Source: Candidatus Bathyarchaeia archaeon
Lineage (GTDB): Archaea > Thermoproteota > Bathyarchaeia > Bathyarchaeales > Bathycorpusculaceae
Reading direction: 5' to 3'
Assembly: GCA_050010515.1 (NCBI GenBank)
Contig: JBEKKX010000013.1
Span: forward strand, 47,330-111,329
Length of the DNA stretch: 64,000 nt
Part shown: positions 9,205-64,000 of the stretch, piece after piece
Layout of the letters: the number at the start of each line of letters is the position of its first letter
How positions within the stretch are numbered: position 1 is the first letter of the stretch
Translations under genes and position numbers: made by a program
Notes under the pieces: generated by a model
What the model saw: only the letters and a program-made list of their open reading frames with translations
Database searches by the model: none
Told to the model about the DNA's origin: nothing

Positions 9205-11470
9205 TTGCGTTAAAGGATGGCTACTTGATGTTTACCCTTCTGACCCCGGCAAAATCGCGGTTTGGGTGATAAGCGAAAAAGGCAAAAGAATCAAGTTCAC
9301 TGACACGTTTCAACCCTGCATTTACGTCTCGGGCAAACAAGACGACCTTGAACGCTTAATCAGCCGACTATTTAGCAATCAAAAAATCGCTTCATTAAAA
9401 TTCGTGCAAAAATACGCTCAAGCCACAGATACTGAAAAGTCAAGGGTACTGGAAATAACTGTTAAGGATTGCAGGCAAATTCCTTCTTTAACGCTTGAAA
9501 TTTTAAGAATCGGCGATTTCTTGCGTTATGAAATTCACAATTGCGACATGCAGAATGACCGTTCATACCTTTTTAGCCGTGACTTGTTTCCGCTTGCACT
9601 TGTGGAGTTAAAAGTGACAAAATCAGGCTTGGATTACACGCTTTTGGATTCGGTTGAAAGCACTGACTACGTTATTCCTAAATTGCAGGTAATAAAGCTT
9701 GAAGTGGAAGTTGCTCAGAGAGGAATTATTGCTAATTTTGATGATGTCATCGATAAAATATGTTTAAAGCAAGAGGGCAAAGAGGAGATTGCCATTGATT
9801 ACGGTGACGAAGCCACAAAGCTGCTACAGCTTGTTTACGCAATAAACGAGTTAGACCCTGACATAATCTTAACAACCGCTGGCGACTTGTACCTTTTTCC
9901 CTACTTAATCTACAGAGCAACCGTAAACAACCTTTTAGACAAGTTCCTCTTAAGCAGAGATAACAAGCCTTTTAACCGTAAATTTTCAGCGGGCAACACC
10001 TACTTTTCCTATGGTCGCACATTTTACAGGGCAGGCACCGTGCGGTTATATGGAAGAATACACATCGATGAAAACAATACTTTCATCATAAAAGAAGCAG
10101 GTTTCGAAGGCTTCATTGAGATAGCACGAACCTGCAGAGTACCCCTACACACGGCTGCACGATTCTCGATAGGCTCAAGCATGTCTTCTATGCAGCTCTA
10201 CCAAGCCATAAAAGATGACATCCTAGTGCCCCGAAACAAAAGGATTCCCGAAGCCTTCAAATCAGCCCTTGACTTGCTCGTTGGCGACCGTGGAGACTTA
10301 ATTTTTGAGCCCCGCCTAGGAGTACACAATTCGATAGGCGAATTAGACTTCTCTTCCATGTACCCAAGCCTAATGGCTAAAAACAATATTTCAGCTGAAA
10401 CAGTGCTTTGCAAATGCTGCCCTGATTCGTCACTGCGGATTCCAGATTTGAATTATCATATCTGTACAAAACGGGTTGGAATAGTGCCTAAAACTATCAA
10501 TTTAGCCTTAACCAAGCGACTGCATTACAAACGCCTAAGAGACGAAACAGGCGACAAACAGCTAAAACAAGCTTACGATAGACGTCAGACAGCGTTAAAA
10601 TGGATTTTAGTCACATGCTTCGGCTATTTAGGCTTTAAAAACTCAAAATTCGGCACTGTTGACGGCCACATTGGCGTTTGCGCTTTTGGCAGAGAAGCTT
10701 TTCTTAAGGCAGCGCACATTGCTGAAGATCAAGGTTTTGAGGTTGTTCACGGTATTGTCGATTCGTTGTGGCTCAAAAAGAAAGACGCAACCATAGAAGA
10801 ATACCATGACTTATGCCGACTAATTACTAAGGAAATAGGCGTTCCCATAAACTTTGAGGGCCGCTACAAATGGGTGGCTTTTCTGCCTTCCAAACTGCAC
10901 CCGCGTATTAGTGTTTTAAACCGTTATTTCGGAGTCATGGAGAACGGTAAGGTTAAAATTAGGGGCTTAGAAGTGCGGCGTAGGGATACTCCAGGGTTTA
11001 TTTTTGACGCCCAAACCGAAATGATCAACGTATTAGCCTCGGCGAATAATTCAGTGGAACTTCACCGGAAAATTCCTGAAGCATTAAAAGTTTTAAAAGC
11101 TTATAGGCAACGGTTACTTAATGGCGAAGTTCCCGTATGTGACTTAATAGTTACTAAGCATCTGTCTAAACAGCCGAAAAACTATAAACAGCATGTTAGC
11201 CAAGTCATCGCAGCTCAGCAATTAATTAAACAAGGCGTGGAAGTTCATGCTGGCAACAACGTGAAATTCCTTTTCACTAACTCTGAAGATAAGCGGTATG
11301 ACCGTAGAGTAAAAGCTTTGCAGCTTATCGAGAAAGGCGTAAACCCAGACGCGAAAAAATACTTGGTACTGCTTTATGCTTCAACCGCTAATCTGTTAAG
11401 TTTCTCAGGCTACACAACCAAAAAAGTATACGACGCAGTCAAGGGGCAGCACCAAAAAACCCTCCAATAA
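9170..11470 (+). CDS. polB2: Family B DNA polymerase, PolB2 group
   Basis: DFSSMYPS (motif A), RQTALKWILVTCFGY (motif B), HGIVDS in place of YGDTDS (motif C), IRGLEVRRRD; exonuclease motifs not recognisable. Confidence 0.9.
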   Translation: MTSSKSSTAAPNCVKGWLLDVYPSDPGKIAVWVISEKGKRIKFTDTFQPCIYVSGKQDDLERLISRLFSNQKIASLKFVQKYAQATDTEKSRVLEITVKDCRQIPSLTLEILRIGDFLRYEIHNCDMQNDRSYLFSRDLFPLALVELKVTKSGLDYTLLDSVESTDYVIPKLQVIKLEVEVAQRGIIANFDDVIDKICLKQEGKEEIAIDYGDEATKLLQLVYAINELDPDIILTTAGDLYLFPYLIYRATVNNLLDKFLLSRDNKPFNRKFSAGNTYFSYGRTFYRAGTVRLYGRIHIDENNTFIIKEAGFEGFIEIARTCRVPLHTAARFSIGSSMSSMQLYQAIKDDILVPRNKRIPEAFKSALDLLVGDRGDLIFEPRLGVHNSIGELDFSSMYPSLMAKNNISAETVLCKCCPDSSLRIPDLNYHICTKRVGIVPKTINLALTKRLHYKRLRDETGDKQLKQAYDRRQTALKWILVTCFGYLGFKNSKFGTVDGHIGVCAFGREAFLKAAHIAEDQGFEVVHGIVDSLWLKKKDATIEEYHDLCRLITKEIGVPINFEGRYKWVAFLPSKLHPRISVLNRYFGVMENGKVKIRGLEVRRRDTPGFIFDAQTEMINVLASANNSVELHRKIPEALKVLKAYRQRLLNGEVPVCDLIVTKHLSKQPKNYKQHVSQVIAAQQLIKQGVEVHAGNNVKFLFTNSEDKRYDRRVKALQLIEKGVNPDAKKYLVLLYASTANLLSFSGYTTKKVYDAVKGQHQKTLQ

Positions 11471-14009: not shown

Positions 14010-14195
14010 TATCATCTTAACGCCACTCGAGGCGGCGACAAAGAATCAAGCTCTGACCTTGAAGCGTTACTTGAGTTTTGGCTTTCAAGAGCTCAATCTG
14101 GGCGTTCCACGAGGTTTTTCAGAACCTTGATTGTTGTTCTTCCCTGTTAACGGTAGGGTGCTGAACGGTTTTACTGCTGTTAACTTTCGGGTGAT
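14010..14195. repeat. Decayed copies of the IS6-like transposon end motifs seen at 57855-62200
   Basis: CCTTGAAGCG at 14057-14066 (reverse complement CGCTTCAAGG); CCACGAGGTTTTTCAGAACCTTGA at 14107-14130; TGTTAACTTTCGGGTGAT at 14178-14195. Confidence 0.6.
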
Positions 14196-14318
14196 ACGAG
14201 CATGCCAATTTAACATTTTTCTATGTATTTTTCTGTTTCGAGATTTTGTCTAAAACTGCTATTTTGCAAGTAGACTCGTCCAAAATAAAATTCAATAAAT
14301 TTAATAATTAAGCAAACG

Positions 14319-57116: not shown

Positions 57117-57761
57117 TTAGCTTCCTGCTTTAAGAAGTACGCTTTTTTCGTCTTCTGATAATTCACGGTAACCATTTTTGTCGATTACAGTAATATTGTA
57201 ACTGTCGCCGCTTGCAACATCCCGCTTCATAGCTGCATTCACAGCCCTAACAATTATGGGTAACAACTCAGCAATGCTCATGCCTTCACGGTAATTATCC
57301 TCAAGTATACCATAAGCTATTGGTGACCCAGAACCCGTTGAAACTGACTTTTCCTCAGTTAAGCTTCCATACGGGTCCAAATTGTAAACGTGCGGTCCAG
57401 TGTCATCTACGCCGCCTACCAGAACCTGCGTCGCTAAAGGCAAGTAACGTGCAGAAAACAGCAAGTTAGCAACAAGCCTTGCTGCCGCACTAACCGGCAT
57501 TGGCCTGTTCATGTTTATCTTGTATAGCTGCGCGTTAGCCGTAAGTATATCCACGACTCTTTGAGCGTCCGCCACAGTTCCAGCAATAGTCATGCCTAAA
57601 TGATCATCGATTTTGTAAACCTTTTTCCCGAATTTATGGGCAACATAGAAACCCATGGTTACCCTTGTGTCTGAAGCTAATATTACGCCATCTTTGCAGA
57701 CGACGCCTATTGTAGTTGTTCCTTTAAGGACTAATTGACTAGCTATATTATTTTGTGACAT
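57117..57761 (-). CDS. psmB: Proteasome beta subunit
   Basis: LKG/TTTIG processing site, ASDTRVT, AGTVADAQ, TGSGS, RDVASG. Confidence 0.96.
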   Translation of the reverse strand: MSQNNIASQLVLKGTTTIGVVCKDGVILASDTRVTMGFYVAHKFGKKVYKIDDHLGMTIAGTVADAQRVVDILTANAQLYKINMNRPMPVSAAARLVANLLFSARYLPLATQVLVGGVDDTGPHVYNLDPYGSLTEEKSVSTGSGSPIAYGILEDNYREGMSIAELLPIIVRAVNAAMKRDVASGDSYNITVIDKNGYRELSEDEKSVLLKAGS

Positions 57762-58051
57762 AGTTTTGTGCTCCCCTAAAACCCCGTTTCGCGGATTGAC
57801 ATCAACACTAGGAAGTAGCATCATGTAATCTTTCCGTGGGATTTATTAATATTGCGCTTCAAGGTTCTGTTAAGTTGGCGTTAGATGGAGTTTTCTGTTA
57901 AGTTTCGTGGGATATTTCTCTTGGTTTTTTCTCCATGTTAAATGTCGTGGGATAAATGCTTTTTTGCAGAATGAATTATCGCTGTAAGAAAACAAGAAAA
58001 CTGAAATCTTAAATCTTGGCAAGATTGTAAGCATAAACAGGTTGTTGCAAA

Positions 58052-58297
58052 ATGTCTGAAGAACCAAAAGGCTTCTGTAATGATTCACAGGAACTTATAG
58101 AGCGCCAAAACTCAGTATGCACCAAACGTGGCGTTATAATATACAAGGGCAGAGGCGACCAATGGTACATAGATTTTCCCGATGATACAGAACGGATAGG
58201 TGGTGTCACAACAATAAAATTGATGACTTTGATTTATTATTTGAAGGAATTTAACGGAAATATTGATAGAAGCAGAAAAGAACTTGGTTGGGAGTAA
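58052..58297 (+). CDS. Hypothetical protein (transposon cargo)
   Basis: 81-aa ORF inside the element. Confidence 0.5.
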   Translation: MSEEPKGFCNDSQELIERQNSVCTKRGVIIYKGRGDQWYIDFPDDTERIGGVTTIKLMTLIYYLKEFNGNIDRSRKELGWE

Positions 58298-58431
58298 CTG
58301 ATTGTAAGTTTACTACGACCATTACAAAGTACATTCTAAGAGTTACTACGTGCATTACTGAGACCATCATAAGGCTTAAGCCAAGTTCCTAAGAATTAGC
58401 GGTTATGATGATTAAGAGGTGAATTAGGTAT

Positions 58432-58542
58432 ATGAATCCTGAAGAAAAAATACTCCAACAAATTCTTGAAGAAATAACAGCTTTAAATGACCAAGTTAAA
58501 GAACTTTCAAAAACTGTAAAAGAAATAAGAAATTCATTATAA
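58432..58542 (+). CDS. 36-aa coiled-coil peptide (transposon cargo)
   Basis: MNPEEKILQQILEEITALNDQVKELSKTVKEIRNSL*; GAGGTGA RBS upstream. Confidence 0.55.
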   Translation: MNPEEKILQQILEEITALNDQVKELSKTVKEIRNSL

Positions 58543-58551
58543 ACAACTTTC

Positions 58552-58739
58552 TTATCTATTTCTTTCCTTGTTTTTGGTTGCGTTTTCTATTAGGGTTTTC
58601 CACTTATCCTGTCCTTCGATAATGATTCCGCATGCCTCTGCTGGAGTCTTTCCGTCTAAAGCCTCATGGGGTCGAACATAGTTATGGTAAAGCTGATAGC
58701 CCTTAAGAGTAGCCGTCACATCGGTTTTTAGCGCGCGCG
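58552..58739 (-). pseudogene. C-terminal remnant of an archaeal IS6-like DDE transposase
   Basis: RALKTDVTATLKGYQLYHNYVRPHEALDGKTPAEACGIIIEGQDKWKTLIENA; the rest of the gene is absent, breaking off at GCGCGCGC. Confidence 0.8.
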
Positions 58740-58787
58740 AACTTATATTCCACAATCACGTCTTTTACCATAAAGAAGGTAATATAA

Positions 58788-58997
58788 ATGGGCGAAATAA
58801 CTACCTTATCAAAAGCTACAACTGGAAAAGAATCCCTCAGAACAATCGTGCCAATGAGCATCCTAAAACAATTCAAACTTTTCGTTGGAGACAAATTAGA
58901 ATGGGAGTTGGAAGCGAGAAATAATGAGCTAATCATTGTAGTTCGACCAGTAAGAAGTTCTGACTCAAAATCGCTTTCTGATTTGAAAAGTTCCTAA
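58788..58997 (+). CDS. AbrB/MazE/SpoVT-family DNA-binding protein
   Basis: SLRTIVPMSILKQFKLFVGDKLEWEL. Confidence 0.8.
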   Translation: MGEITTLSKATTGKESLRTIVPMSILKQFKLFVGDKLEWELEARNNELIIVVRPVRSSDSKSLSDLKSS

Positions 58998-59040
58998 AAG
59001 CTCTTAAGTAAAACAGGTACAGATTGAGGATTGAAAAGCA

Positions 59041-61773
59041 ATGAGCGAAGAGTTAACTCAAAAAAGACTGACTGAACATGGGTTAATAATCGGTAACTAT
59101 GAGTTTTATAACATAGGCGCTACTACAGTCAACCAGCTCAAGAAATGCCAAATTATCCCAAACGAGGATTACAAGGAATATGGAATAAGAAAACCAGATG
59201 CGCTAATTGTTGACAGACGAAATATGAAACAAATTAAGGTTGTCTGCGTCATAGAAGGCAAACCTAATGAAAAATTCGATTCTGCACAAAAGAGAATAGA
59301 TACGATACAACAATGTAATGACCTATGCCAAGTGCTTAATGCAGAGTTAGGTATTGCAACAGATTACACCTCTTTTTCATGGTTTAATCCTAATCAAAAT
59401 AATTCCAAAACAGAGTATTTAGACAGAACAACTAGTGCCAAAAGGAGCTACACCATAATAACGGATGAAAAAGGGAAAGATTTCATAAAAGATTTCACTA
59501 TCGACCAAAAGCAAGATGAAATAGAAATAACAAAGTTAAGCGTAAAAACCAGAAAAAGCATGCAAAACTTAGAGTTAGTAAGAAAAAGCCTTTCTTCAAC
59601 TAACTCCCAGCTTATCGAGGAAAGCGTAAAAGACCCCACTGTTTTAGCAACAAAAATCTGGCAAGATGTTTGGTTTGCCACCGGAGCAACACCACCAAGT
59701 TGTCTATATACCTTTGTTGAATTATTTATTTTCAAGTATTTGAGCGATTTGAATATTTTAACAAAAGATAAGGCAGGAAACAAAGTAAACTTCAAAGACA
59801 TCTATTCTCTTAATCCGAATGAAGCGTTCATAAATTACACGCAAAATGTCCGACCTTTTCTTAAGATAATGTTTCCAAAAAATGAAAAAGATAATACGAC
59901 CATAATAAATGGAACAGTTTTAAATCCTGATGTTGCTCAACATAGCTTAGTCTTCTACAGAATTTTGAAGCGTTTTGATGAATTTGGAGAGTTACGAAAT
60001 ATCGACCCCAGTTTCAAGTCAAAAGTTTTTGAAGAGTTTATGAAAGAAACTATTAGCAGAAAGAATTGGGGACAATTTTTCACTCCTAGAAACATCATTG
60101 ATGCAATGGTTGAAATGTCGGACATTGACAAATTAGATGAGGGGTCAAAAGTTTGTGACCCCGCATGCGGAGTGGGCGGTTTCATACTGGAGCCGATTAG
60201 GGTAAAGGAAAACGGTGTAAACTTCTATTATCAAATTGTAGGAAATGAAGTAAAGTCCAGATTGAATTTCTTTGGCTTTGACAAAGGTTTTGAGAAAGAA
60301 GAACAGTTGGTAATAATCTTAGCAAAAGCGAATATGTTGATTTTTCTGTCTGAACTGCTAAAAAATAATCCCACTATTGCCGAAAAATTTTCTGACTTAT
60401 TTAATTCAACCTTTGAACTGTTATGTAAAACTACTCTGGGTACCTTATCGATAACCGAGTATGACAAATATGATTTGATACTTTCCAATCCACCATACGT
60501 TACAAGTGGAAGTAGCGGATATAAAGAAGCAATTAATGAAGAAACTGTCTTCAAAAAGTATTACAAAACGCAAGGTTTTGGGGTTGAAAGCCTTTTCATA
60601 GAATGGATTATAAACAGTTTGAAACCCTCAAAAAGTGCATTTGTTATTATTCCTGATGGTATATTGAATAGACTTAACGGCATTAAACTTAGGGCTTTCA
60701 TAAGAGATGAATGTATAATAAACTGCATAGTTTCATTGCCGATAAACGCTTTCTATAGGAACCCGAAAAAGACATACATAATATCGATAACTAAAAAACC
60801 TGAAAAAAACGTAGATGATAGAAAGGCACATTTACAAACTGAACCAGTATTCACCTATTTAGTAAGTAATGTGGGAGAAACATTGGATGTGAAAAGGTTC
60901 CCCATCGAAGAAAATGATTTGAAAGAGATGGTTTCTCTCTACAACCAATTCAAAGGAGCAAAAGCAAGTTTCCACTCTGAAAGCAAACGATGTAAAATTC
61001 AACCGATTGATAAATTTGATGCTGTCAATCCAACAAGTCATTGGTCAGTGGATAGATGGTGGTCAAAAGAAGAAAAAGTAAGTTTAGGAATAGAAGAACA
61101 AGAAACCGTTCTGTCCATTGACGAATTTAAGGGGAAAATGAGTGATTTAGAAGAAAAAATACGAGAACTAAACGTACAGTTGCAAGACTTACAGAAACAA
61201 GCAACCTCTCAAGGAAAAATAGACAAAATAGACAAAAACTTAGCTGACGAACAATATTTTGAATTATCTATAGGAGAAAGGATACTTAAAAAGGAAGTTT
61301 TTCAATCAAAGGGAAACATTCCAGTATATAGCGCTAATGTTAATGAACCGTTTGGTTATCTTGATGAAACAAACGTAAGCATTGTTGATTTTGAACATAG
61401 TTACGTACTCTGGGGTATAGACGGTAACTTTGAACTTACAGTAAAACACATGGGGGAAAAATTTGCGATAACTGACCATTGTGGTGCAGTGAAAGTTTTG
61501 GATTCTGGAATAATTCCTGAATACTTAGCTTATCAATTGGAAATTAAGAAATACGAAATGGGTTTTGACAGAAGTTTACGGGCATCTTTAGCAAATATGG
61601 AAACGGTAACTGTGAGTATTCCTATTTTGCCAAATGGCTCTTTCGATGTTGAAAGACAGCGAGAGGTAGTTAAGAAGTATGCGTTTCTTAAGGAAATGCG
61701 TGAAGACATTCAATCACAAATTGAAGATTTGACAAAAGCAACAATAGACTTAGGAGAAAACTCTGCCTCATAA
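59041..61773 (+). CDS. Single-chain restriction-modification enzyme: nuclease + N6-adenine MTase + one target-recognition domain (Type IIG-like)
   Basis: KPDALIVD..IEGK (PD-D/ExK-like), GQFFTPR, CDPACGVGGF (motif I), SNPPY (motif IV), C-terminal HsdS-like IPVYSAN..WGIDG. Confidence 0.82.
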   Translation: MSEELTQKRLTEHGLIIGNYEFYNIGATTVNQLKKCQIIPNEDYKEYGIRKPDALIVDRRNMKQIKVVCVIEGKPNEKFDSAQKRIDTIQQCNDLCQVLNAELGIATDYTSFSWFNPNQNNSKTEYLDRTTSAKRSYTIITDEKGKDFIKDFTIDQKQDEIEITKLSVKTRKSMQNLELVRKSLSSTNSQLIEESVKDPTVLATKIWQDVWFATGATPPSCLYTFVELFIFKYLSDLNILTKDKAGNKVNFKDIYSLNPNEAFINYTQNVRPFLKIMFPKNEKDNTTIINGTVLNPDVAQHSLVFYRILKRFDEFGELRNIDPSFKSKVFEEFMKETISRKNWGQFFTPRNIIDAMVEMSDIDKLDEGSKVCDPACGVGGFILEPIRVKENGVNFYYQIVGNEVKSRLNFFGFDKGFEKEEQLVIILAKANMLIFLSELLKNNPTIAEKFSDLFNSTFELLCKTTLGTLSITEYDKYDLILSNPPYVTSGSSGYKEAINEETVFKKYYKTQGFGVESLFIEWIINSLKPSKSAFVIIPDGILNRLNGIKLRAFIRDECIINCIVSLPINAFYRNPKKTYIISITKKPEKNVDDRKAHLQTEPVFTYLVSNVGETLDVKRFPIEENDLKEMVSLYNQFKGAKASFHSESKRCKIQPIDKFDAVNPTSHWSVDRWWSKEEKVSLGIEEQETVLSIDEFKGKMSDLEEKIRELNVQLQDLQKQATSQGKIDKIDKNLADEQYFELSIGERILKKEVFQSKGNIPVYSANVNEPFGYLDETNVSIVDFEHSYVLWGIDGNFELTVKHMGEKFAITDHCGAVKVLDSGIIPEYLAYQLEIKKYEMGFDRSLRASLANMETVTVSIPILPNGSFDVERQREVVKKYAFLKEMREDIQSQIEDLTKATIDLGENSAS

Positions 61774-61822
61774 TAAGCAAAGCTTATCTTTTATAAACGC
61801 AACTTCAAAGAAGGGATAAGTT

Positions 61823-62014
61823 ATGGTTAAATGCCCAAAGTGTGGTTCAGAAAACGCAAAGCCTACAAAAGAGTGGAAGTATGCGCTTTTTCAAGTTAAA
61901 AAATTTGATTGCCAAAAATGTAAAGCTAAATTCAGAGATTACTCAAAACAAGGGAAACATAATTTTACTCTAATATACGTTGATGGCGTAGGGTATCGAA
62001 AACCAAAGGCTTGA
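61823..62014 (+). CDS. Small basic zinc-ribbon protein, possibly Cren7-like
   Basis: MVKCPKCG..KPTKEWKY..VKKFDCQKCKAKFRDY. Confidence 0.65.
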   Translation: MVKCPKCGSENAKPTKEWKYALFQVKKFDCQKCKAKFRDYSKQGKHNFTLIYVDGVGYRKPKA

Positions 62015-62124
62015 ACAGTACGTTATCACCCGACTGTTAACATGGACATTTCAAAGGCTCGTTGTGTCACCCGAAAATTAACGGTCTTTTCCATCGCCTA
62101 TGAAGTTACCAGAACCCGCTTCAA

Positions 62125-62203
62125 GGTTCTGTTAACTTCTCGTGGGATGGTTTTTTGGTGTTAATAGTCGTGGGATGTTTAACACTGTTAAGTTATTTGT
62201 GGT
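62125..62203 (+). repeat. Orphan second transposon end immediately after the target duplication
   Basis: GGTTCTGTTAACTTCTCGTGGGAT, TGTTAATAGTCGTGGGAT (62159) and degenerate TGTTAAGTTATTTGTGGT (62186). Confidence 0.8.
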
Positions 62204-62391
62204 AGGTTCTCAACATGAAAACTGTGTTTTTGATATGTTACGTTTTTGGAAATATGGCTTATATGCTTTTTTTACGGTTTGCCTCGTTTAAGGAGAGAAG
62301 GAGTACGGGAGAAGAGAAGGCTTCAATACTTACTACTTTTGAGGGGAAGAGGGAAGGGTATAAATCAAAATAGACAGAGAGCTAAACTAAA

Positions 62392-62586
62392 ATGACCCAA
62401 AAAACTACAGATGAAATTCGAACACTTCTCAGCAATGCTAAGCTAAATTTTGAGTCAGTAGAGAATAAGGCATTGAACGATTATCTTCCAAAAATATTTC
62501 ATAGTTGCCCATTTACAGAGGAACTATGCACAACAAAGCAATGCGTAGAATGTGCAGTTTTCACAAACAAAAATAAACAAACTTGA
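62392..62586 (+). CDS. Small hypothetical protein with a four-Cys C-terminal motif
   Basis: SCPFTEELCTTKQCVECAVF; TATAAA box upstream near 62358. Confidence 0.6.
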   Translation: MTQKTTDEIRTLLSNAKLNFESVENKALNDYLPKIFHSCPFTEELCTTKQCVECAVFTNKNKQT

Positions 62587-63059: not shown

Positions 63060-63455
63060 TAAATTTGCCGCCAACCTTATATGCCATAAACCTGCCTAAA
63101 CTGTACTTCCCGATGCAACTCGGCAACTAACCCATGCCGCGTGAAGACGTGAACTTGAGCCTAAACAGCTCAAAAATGCCACAGGACGCAAAAACCGCTG
63201 TTCAACAAACCTTATTATGTATCAACGTAATCCTTATATTAGCGAAATCCGCTTCTAATGCAGTTCAGCAATATGGGTTATACCATCAAAATAGATGCAA
63301 CTCCCCACCTCATCGATGAGGAGTGAAGGGTGAACTGACTTCGCCAAGACACGCGCGAAGATCAAAATGACACCATGCACAGGACAAACAATCAACGACG
63401 CCACACAACATATCGAAATGTGTTTCACCAAACGCCAAACAAACACCACCAATGG
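63060..63455 (+). promoter_or_regulatory. Putative promoter and leader region of the 23S rRNA gene
   Basis: TATA-like CTTATAT at 63077 and 63233; GATGCAACTC repeated at 63112 and 63294; CGATGA...CTGA box C/D-like pair near 63314-63338. Confidence 0.45.
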
Positions 63456-64000
63456 CCCGAAACATGCCACGCCGTCTGGAGGATGGCTCGGCTTGAGAGC
63501 CGAAGAAGGGCGCGGCAAGCCGCGATACCGCCCCGGGTAGGCGCATGCAGCCTTAGATCCGGGGGTACCTGAATGGGACTTCCTAGAATATGCTCCCTTC
63601 ATGGGAGCGGGAACCCCCCGAACGGAAGCATCTTAGTAGGGGGAGGAAAAGAAACCAAACACGGGATTCCCTTAGTAGCAGCGAGCGAAATGGGAAAAGT
63701 CCAAACCGAATCCCACATGGAAACATACGGGAGATGTAGGGTTAAGGGCCTGGCTTCCTCTTCACTGGTTAAGCTGAAGTGGCCTGAAATGACCCGCCAC
63801 AGAGGGTGACAGCCCCGTAAACGTAAGCCAGAAAGAGCTGAGCTAGAGTCCCAGACTACCGCACCATGGTTTTGGTGCGGAAAGTTGGGAGGCACCAACT
63901 TCCAAGACTAAATACGCCTCAAGACCGATAGCGCACTAGTACGGTGACGGAAAACTGAAAAGTACCCCGGAATGGGGGTGAAAAGTGCCTGAAACCAGAC
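63456..64000 (+). rRNA. rrl: 23S rRNA, 5' portion (runs off the window; 5' end approximate)
   Basis: GGATGGCTCGGCTTG, CCTGAATGGGA, GAAGCATCTTAGTA, GGAAAAGAAACCAA, TAGTAGCAGCGAGCGAAA, GGGTGACAGCCCCGTA, CTAAATAC, ACCGATAGCG, AGTACGGTGACGGAAA. Confidence 0.97.

Follow-up and report, generated by a model that had tools for sequence, protein, structure and literature searches.

The stretch of DNA analysed here, called the window below, comprises 64,000 nt (C13:47330-111329) of the genome of a peat archaeon (Candidatus Bathyarchaeia), which comprises 2.38 Mb in 66 contigs (G000). At window positions 57863-62116 it contains a 4254-bp unit, designated E1, which is very probably a non-autonomous copy of an archaeal cargo transposon that is related to the IS6 family of insertion sequences (IS) and from which the transposase has been deleted.

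Direct reading of positions 57600-62400 gives E1 a left tip GGTTCTGTTAA (57863-57873) and a right tip TTACCAGAACC (62106-62116), which are inverted and of the GGTTCTG type. Both read GGTTCTGT(T/G)AA, with the GG start and the internal cTGTt that are typical of IS6 ends (PMC7986276), and the flanking duplication CGCTTCAA is exact in all eight positions (57855-57862 and 62117-62124). A unit of this length with inverted ends and an exact 8-bp duplication, as described in an earlier note made from the sequence alone, is thus borne out, and so are the three sites per end that the note had reported. The motif TGTTAA-N3/4-TCG(T/G)G(G/T)GAT occurs three times within the ~90 nt of each end, whereas a single short inverted repeat (IR) of 15-20 bp is the rule in IS6. 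In the left end, L1 (57863-57953, plus strand; transposase-distal, IRR by IS convention), the sites start at offsets 5, 33 and 73 (57868-57886, 57896-57913 and 57936-57953), and a script scored the copy at offset 5 with 3 mismatches. In the right end, R1 (62025-62116, minus strand; transposase-proximal, IRL by convention), they lie at offsets 5, 33 and 74 nt (62093-62111, 62066-62083 and 62025-62042); the script found the copy at offset 74 to be perfect, the copy at offset 33 reads CGTTAA...TCGGGTGAC, and the outermost copy, read by eye, is degenerate (TGGTAACTTCATAGGCGAT). With 4254 bp and five non-transposase open reading frames (ORFs), E1 also lies outside the IS6 range of 700-890 bp, or at most 1.76 kb in the long clades, without passengers.

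The motif is rare elsewhere. A strict version, TGTTAA-N3/4-TCG[TG]G[GT]GA[TC] searched on both strands, occurs only 10 times in the 2.38-Mb genome, against a chance expectation that we estimate from its information content at ~0.07 genome-wide, and eight of these occurrences lie inside recognisable ends of the family to which E1 belongs (five at the E1 locus, the other three in an element of similar make on contig C15). The left tip GGTTCTGTTAA, with at most one mismatch allowed, is found five times in the window where 1.56 would be expected, three of them at the E1 locus. One of the two strict-motif copies outside recognisable ends belongs to an intergenic relic end at window 14118-14200, where TGTTAACGGTAGGGTGCT lies 34 nt from the perfect R-type site TGTTAACTTTCGGGTGAT, downstream of a tip that has decayed.

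Only the last 60 or so codons of the transposase were reported to remain, and this agrees with what we find. A 67-codon, rve_3-like ORF on the minus strand (58552-58755) aligns through its residues 5-67, about 63 in number, with positions ~310-375 of a family transposase of ~375 amino acids (aa). The identity to the family transposases is 47-75% over more than 50 residues in 42 of 43 cases; the 43rd protein (331 aa) gives a match of 20 residues. Judged by the catalytic columns of the 43-member alignment, the remnant lacks all three catalytic residues (D, D, E). On the opposite strand, with its start codon at 58788 and 33 bp from the remnant at 58755, lies a 69-aa AbrB/SpoVT-MazE-like gene (58788-58997, plus strand; Pfam PF04014 at E 1.3e-4, below the cut-off). 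Seven of the 43 related elements have homologues with 47-64% identity, each encoded on the opposite strand at a distance of 41-118 bp upstream from where the transposase starts. The AbrB gene that the earlier note counted as cargo is indeed inside E1; to judge from its relatives, it is a recurrent, divergently transcribed partner of the transposase and not free cargo. In other elements the slot directly upstream of the transposase, occupied by AbrB in these seven, is filled by small genes of three other clusters. The gene order of E1, with the restriction-modification (RM) gene, the AbrB-like gene and the transposase on the other strand, is the layout of intact relatives, and therefore one internal deletion suffices to explain E1: the loss of ~1 kb, comprising the intergenic divergent promoter region and codons 1 to ~310, turns the ordinary layout into the present one. 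Mobile insertion cassette (MIC) is the term for the category of IS-ended cassettes, and E1, in which inverted ends of the family and a duplication surround passengers without a functional transposase, fits the idea of a MIC or tIS.

The largest gene in E1 (59041-61773, plus strand) is still an intact reading frame and codes for a 910-aa protein that we read as an RM enzyme of the single-chain R-M-S, type IIG-like kind. The protein matches N6_Mtase (1e-29), Eco57I (2.3e-9) and Methylase_S (4.6e-5) in Pfam, has one HsdS-like target recognition domain, contains NPPY in its translation and finds HsdM subunits in the PDB (E 1e-11); the N6-adenine methyltransferase and the target recognition domain are combined in one chain, as in type IIG-like enzymes. 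The first 300-320 residues gave no Pfam or NCBIfam match. The N-terminal 320 aa resemble HSDR_N clusters in a protein atlas (feature score 0.94-0.95, a lead only), a PD...E-x-K pattern was read by eye, and three related cargo proteins of the family match HSDR_N_2, so that a putative PD-(D/E)xK nuclease can be envisaged at this end of the protein. An identification as MADS2 was rejected (NCBIfam 86.6 bits, cut-off 720 bits) and is not used. The RM gene is followed by a gene for a 63-aa zinc-ribbon protein (61823-62014, plus strand; weak Pfam matches below the cut-off), which is 33% identical to a 71-aa ORF beside the RM gene of another family element (L093). At the other side of the remnant are ORFs of 81 aa (58052-58297, plus strand), without a family match and without a homologue among the ORFs of the 43 related elements, and of 36 aa (58432-58542, plus strand).

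The family was delineated with a transposase encoded elsewhere in the same genome (on contig C4) as the query against one genome per species, which gave 117 relatives, of which 80 loci were kept. An element was called if GGTTCTGT-like tips (at most one mismatch) were present on both sides of the gene and were flanked by identical 8-bp sequences. This was the case for 43 of the 80 loci with a full-length transposase, which thus have inverted ends and an exact 8-bp duplication; the other 37 include loci that are cut by a contig end and loci where this simple rule gave no pair. The 43 elements span 2153-8093 bp, and each carries one transposase of 331-433 aa (mostly ~375) together with other ORFs. 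According to the record titles the hosts are mostly Bathyarchaeia, with further members in Nitrososphaeria, Methanoperedens, Methanocellaceae, Methanoregulaceae and Thermoplasmata and a few in records labelled bacterial.

Family transposases match PF13610 at E 5.2e-19 and, for the C4 protein, 4.6e-15, above the curated cut-off of 27 bits. At least 42 of the 43 proteins conserve C-x-C-x9-C-x-H, two CxxC pairs, D209/D268/E307 and R314. The predicted organization is that of a SWIM-like zinc finger, a zinc ribbon, an HTH (helix-turn-helix) module and an IS6-type DDE core, the SWIM-like call on C-x-C-x9-C-x-H having a Pfam SWIM match of only E 0.007. An HTH, a DDE triad with K/R seven residues past the E, and a PF13610 match, which together mark an IS6-type transposase, are all present in the family, and E1 retains the C-terminal ~63 residues of such a protein.

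The ends of the family have an ordered internal structure. By best match, all 86 ends of the 43 elements hold one further copy of the tip site (positions 5-23), and this internal copy has at most 3 mismatches in 14 positions in 77 of the 86 ends, compared to 22 of 1720 shuffles. Its offset is 32-34 in 54 ends, 42-44 in 25 and 52-54 in seven, so that the bands step by about one helical turn. The variable half of the site differs by sub-lineage (CGTTTGGT, CGTCTGTT, CGTCGGAT, CGTCACCT, CGGTTGAT and others), and within an end the two copies of this half differ on average by 1.56 mismatches of 8, as compared to 2.55 against the ends of other elements. Such covariation of tip site, inner site and opposite end is what one would expect for the sites of a co-evolving binding protein. 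A search for a third site in the 86 ends of these other family members gave a result equal to the shuffled control (0 of 86). Three sites per end are limited to the sub-lineage of E1: they occur in L1 and R1, in the C15 end of the same genome (sites at 5/33/74), in a 4940-bp transposase-less element of genome G003 with the exact duplication TTAATTCA, and in a 3959-bp element of genome G007 with the exact duplication CTTTTTTC and a 370-aa transposase that is 72% identical to the E1 remnant. Two sites per end is the family norm, and three is a subfamily trait. The earlier note had proposed to test whether full-length homologues have the same triple-motif ends and variable cargo, and the outcome favours it: multi-site ends and variable cargo were found at 43 of the 80 loci, and the triple motif holds for the subfamily only. 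Its statement that cargo is carried within a single pair of complex, multi-site ends is confirmed. A compound transposon made of two IS copies was considered for E1 and rejected, since E1 has a single stub of a transposase and its inverted ends form one pair.

For the cargo, 91 non-transposase ORFs of at least 110 aa (of 194 of at least 60 aa) in the 43 elements were compared with Pfam, and the counts given here refer to 25 of the 52 families matched. Among these, RM functions recur (N6_Mtase 6, Eco57I 6, MmeI_Mtase 4, HSDR_N_2 3, N6_N4_Mtase 2), next to GmrSD_N (1), RE_BsaWI (1), PemK toxin (1), NYN (1) and GNAT (2). Relatives of the E1 enzyme, i.e. large methyltransferase-fusion proteins, are present in five of the 43 elements, with 24-29% identity over the methyltransferase part, which suggests that type IIG-like RM enzymes are a recurrent cargo of the family. 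Six of the 91 cargo ORFs are proteasome-like (PF00227).

The tips, the 8-bp duplications and the transposase, with PF13610 above the cut-off and 31% identity to ISCpe7, mean that the new transposon class suggested in the earlier note does not stand; the archaeal family is a branch of the IS6-related transposases. ISCpe7, a member of the clostridial long zinc-finger clade h with a 340-aa transposase, aligns over 241 residues of the HTH-DDE core (E 1e-34), whereas the N-terminal 128 residues of the archaeal proteins do not align, and transposases of the ISCpe7 type are the nearest annotated bacterial relatives in the plasmid collection. The clade shares with the archaeal family an N-terminal cysteine-rich extension, GG...CTGT tips and 8-bp duplications (PMC7986276, cited here and below from part of its text). 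Its members are 1.2-1.5 kb long with one 15-20-bp IR, whereas the archaeal elements measure 2.1-8.1 kb, have 2-3 phased repeats, carry passengers as a rule and reside in archaeal hosts. Canonical IS6 elements (IS26, IS257, IS1216, IS6100) have in common with them the GGTTCTGT tips, the 8-bp duplication and a DDE domain of the same Pfam family, the transposases of the IS1216/IS26 type being ~24% identical to the family transposase. They are 700-890 bp long with a single short IR and no passengers, and move cargo by directly repeated pairs (PMC7986276), whereas in the archaeal family the cargo lies within one inverted pair. Passengers inside IS ends are described for ISDsp3 and the tIS (PMC7986276). 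ISDsp3, however, is a single copy with one hypothetical gene, whereas the archaeal elements have cargo in 43 of 43 cases, which is multi-gene and often defence-related.

In Tn7, Mu and Tn5053, each end has several transposase sites, the transposase is of the rve type, an AAA+ partner selects the target and the duplication is 5 bp. The archaeal family resembles Tn7, Mu and Tn5053/Tn402 in having several ordered site repeats per end, which would be bound by its transposase. It differs from them in that the duplication of E1 is 8 bp instead of 5 bp, in that the transposase is IS6-type, and in that no AAA+ partner, i.e. no ATPase of the TnsC/MuB/TniB type, is present among the 25 Pfam families listed of the 52 matching cargo ORFs. 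Tn7-like elements with defence genes as cargo have been reported (PMC8649781, seen in part).

In the part of the review by Varani et al. (2021) that is cited here, IS6 elements of 700-890 bp with 15-20-bp IRs are described, together with two miniature inverted-repeat elements (MITEs) and one passenger-carrying member, ISDsp3; zinc-finger-extended IS6 transposases occur there only in clostridial clades, and the word 'subterminal' is absent from its text (PMC7986276). Harmer and Hall (2019), also cited from part of the text, mention archaeal IS6 members with longer terminal inverted repeats (at least 18 bp) and doubt their place in the family (PMC6807381). In the cited part of Krupovic et al. 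(2019), thaumarchaeal IS are elements of one or two genes, and passenger-carrying DNA transposons are stated to be undetected in archaea (PMC6563490), and in the portion of a 2026 survey of archaeal IS drawn on here passengers are not mentioned (PMC13343696). We found no published description of the present archaeal architecture, although the supplementary IS tables of the cited papers might list such elements. In that sense the earlier note's view of the element as apparently undescribed is supported, even if it is IS6-related and does not form a separate class. The new points concern the second site, which is in helical phase, the third site, which is confined to the subfamily, the derivation of E1 by a single deletion, and the comparison, given below, with a relative that has different cargo at the same site.

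E1 lies upstream of a proteasome beta-subunit gene (57117-57824, minus strand), and its left tip is 9 nt from a TATA-like box TTTATTAATATT (57842-57853, minus strand), which is presumably part of the promoter of that gene. In many insertions of the family a TATA-like box lies 2-10 nt away from the 8 bp that were duplicated, and in reconstructed target sites the A+T content peaks at 79-88%. At the right, E1 is followed by a third family end that is missing from the description in the earlier note. This end, L2 (62125-62210, plus strand), is an older solo end of the subfamily of E1, which begins with GGTTCTGTTAACTTCTCGTGGGAT, then TGTTAATAGTCGTGGGAT, and has sites at offsets 5 and 34 (62130-62148 and 62159-62176) as well as a TGTTAA with a decayed second half at ~62187. 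No partner end was found for it before the 23S rRNA gene and the end of the contig. The right tip of E1 is exactly 8 bp from the tip of L2, and the right target duplication (62117-62124) doubles as the spacer between them.

This arrangement recurs. Seven of the 86 flanks of the 43 elements abut another family end at exactly 8 bp, and every other spacing from 0 to 30 was found zero times or once. When 120 genomes of the genus were scanned for inward-facing tips 0-30 nt apart, the four matches with an 8-nt spacer (in G000, G003, G069 and G130) were all real end pairs with two-site arms, and the matches with 6- and 7-nt spacers that were inspected were not. G003, G016 and G013 (three of 11 same-genus junctions) have other family ends at an identical distance from the proteasome promoter; in G003 the orthologous position has a solo three-site end, then unrelated genes. 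In G130, in which the flank is 92% identical, a 4997-bp element with the duplication CGCTTCGA occupies the same site and carries different genes, namely two ORFs that look PIN-like by eye and genes for proteins of 488 and 576 aa, and a third end of another sub-lineage follows it. The 576-aa protein of this transposase-less element (L138, G130:C11, reverse complement 9726-11456) has multiple zinc ribbons, and its residues 434-517 are 46% identical to the N-terminal SWIM region of the family transposases, so that it might represent the domain that binds the ends in free-standing form.

A mechanism can be proposed from these data. The ~375-aa transposase would bind a bipartite site TGTNAA-N3/4-(T/C)CGNNNG that is located at the tip and repeated once or twice deeper in the end, where it faces the same side of the helix. 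Once bound, the ends would be paired and the element inserted via an 8-bp staggered cut. Insertion may be replicative, by way of a cointegrate as in IS26, or follow another route. The whole of E1, including its cargo, would in this way have been inserted into the 8 bp between the proteasome promoter and the older resident end L2, the 8 bp beside a resident tip being a habitual landing place of the family. The transposase may have been lost before the insertion, in which case E1 would have been mobilised in trans, or after it; either order is possible.

Two other explanations have to be weighed against this one. It is conceivable, but improbable, that E1 is a patchwork that arose in place, its ends and duplication stemming from an older insertion and its interior having been added later by recombination or nesting, so that the unit never moved as a whole. 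The G130 element, which sits at this site, has the same duplication (CGCTTCGA) and carries wholly different genes, is what such an exchange of content could produce. The two ends of E1 also differ in site variant and have their best matches in different genomes: L1 is 84% identical over 100 nt to the end of a G003 element at another locus, and R1 is 77-78% identical to two ends in G004. However, the ends of E1 are only 63% and 64% identical to those of the G130 element despite the 92% identity of the flank, which argues for separate insertions into the same 8 bp, as targeting of tips predicts, and the ordinary family order of RM gene, AbrB gene and transposase needs one deletion and no patchwork. 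We read the data as repeated independent landings in the same 8 bp, as the degree of end divergence suggests, and not as an inherited element with swapped content. That the ends are chance or non-transposon repeats, such as sites for regulators or recombinases in the vicinity of the proteasome and rRNA genes, with the 8-mer as part of a local duplication of 19-40 nt, is hardly credible. The direct repeat flanking E1 does run to 19 identical bases (33 of 40 overall) and into the third end, but it exceeds 8 bp because L2 starts directly after the right duplication. Ends at the same offset from the proteasome promoter, as in G003, G016, G013 and G130, would also suit sites with a role at this locus. 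Yet ends of this architecture enclose a DDE transposase, with exact 8-bp duplications, at 43 sites that are unrelated to each other and belong to many archaeal lineages, and elsewhere in the genome the strict motif is nearly lacking.

Some observations do weigh against the interpretation of E1 as a transposed copy with a deleted transposase. The outermost site is degenerate at both ends, and the site variants differ between them, with TCGTGGGAT at the left and TCGGGTGA(T/C) at the right. The latter variant is shared by the two G004 ends (L141) and by the relic at window 14178; in the autonomous element of G007, by contrast, both ends have TCGTGGGAT. By these variants E1 could be a hybrid of two sub-lineages and not a clean copy; alternatively, the family transposase may tolerate both. 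The cargo of E1 was absent from 40 relatives searched with the element DNA, in which matches (at most 148 nt) were confined to the ends, the stub of the transposase and a portion of the AbrB region, so that there is no second copy showing that the unit moved. An empty site was not found among the 11 same-genus junctions, the eight without a family end having unrelated DNA downstream. In metagenome contigs from four public runs, none of which is marked as a possible source, 57862 is nowhere connected with 62125, which is uninformative either way since contigs drop rare variants.

The same population data illustrate how the locus is occupied. The window stretch is present in ~20 public peat and wetland runs. 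In the four runs, contigs identical to the window cover E1, and one contig of 4381 nt from a public peat run spans 57831-62211, including both junctions, without any difference. The proteasome flank has a 10- to 50-fold higher summed depth, with many differences, and contigs with loose ends at 57857 and 57878 run on into further ends of the family type, representing at least two other sequences. This implies that the site is occupied differently in co-occurring relatives, and it is also a point that can be put on the side of a patchwork. A joint on opposite strands, 57884/62096, in a 432-nt contig with 9 differences was discarded, as it represents the inverted ends of another element.

Within the genome itself, no full-length family transposase was found in the 66 contigs, although the assembly may have lost repeats. 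The best copy is that on C4 and the others are C-terminal fragments. Since the assembly has no full-length transposase, E1 is probably a decayed copy that is now immobile. The C4 element (C4:31607-33771; 2165 bp) has an exact duplication CTTTCACG and contains, besides the gene for a 242-aa transposase, three other ORFs (94, 187 and 97 aa). Its transposase ORF starts at about residue 128 of the family protein, which is ~130 residues longer at the N-terminus, and is without the two zinc modules. Either this copy was truncated or the form is short by nature. The unit at C5:67888-69939 has no transposase, encodes a 512-aa membrane protein and has 7 of 8 flank bases duplicated. Further units with GGTTCTGT tips and a repeated site include C3:25878-26867 and the one from C15:56805 to the contig end, among others.

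The picture drawn here has consequences beyond E1. The family, which is spread across many mesophilic archaea, contradicts the uniform picture of IS6 (PMC7986276) and the statement that passenger-carrying transposons are undetected in archaea (PMC6563490), as given in the cited parts of these papers. It provides a vehicle for restriction-modification and toxin-antitoxin genes in mesophilic archaea, and its phased, covarying end sites offer natural specificity variants for end recognition of the IS6 type. Targeting from tip to tip at the edge of promoters would explain the stacks of relic ends and the fast turnover of cargo at fixed sites. A wider proposal, which we put forward tentatively and rate at somewhat short of an even chance, is that of a distinct archaeal family with an IS6 core, phased multi-site ends like those of Mu and Tn7, a transposase with SWIM and zinc-ribbon modules, constant cargo that often serves defence, and a preference for the 8 bp beside the tips of other members at the upstream edge of promoters, where landing pads for cassette exchange would form. 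On such pads cargo cassettes would succeed each other between close relatives, providing an exchange platform for archaeal defence genes.

Some further features of the locus and the genome deserve mention. A 23S rRNA gene (Rfam LSU) is present at 63455-64000, where the contig stops inside the gene; its start is 1.3 kb downstream of L2, and no 16S gene separates the two. In G130 (L138) the homologous 23S region has the opposite orientation with respect to the proteasome flank that both genomes share, which fits an IS-mediated inversion and proves nothing. The unit at G000:C50:3184-5029 has two ends from different sub-lineages (CGTCACC and CGGTTGA sites) and no flanking duplication, and is a chimeric or rearranged element. 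Finally, a different transposase C-terminus, YYNY(V/T)RPHEGI(D/G)YLTPAE, is located at the ends of nine contigs (C3, C18, C21, C26, C34, C37, C42, C50 and C66) and probably belongs to an IS of another family whose multiple copies break up the assembly.

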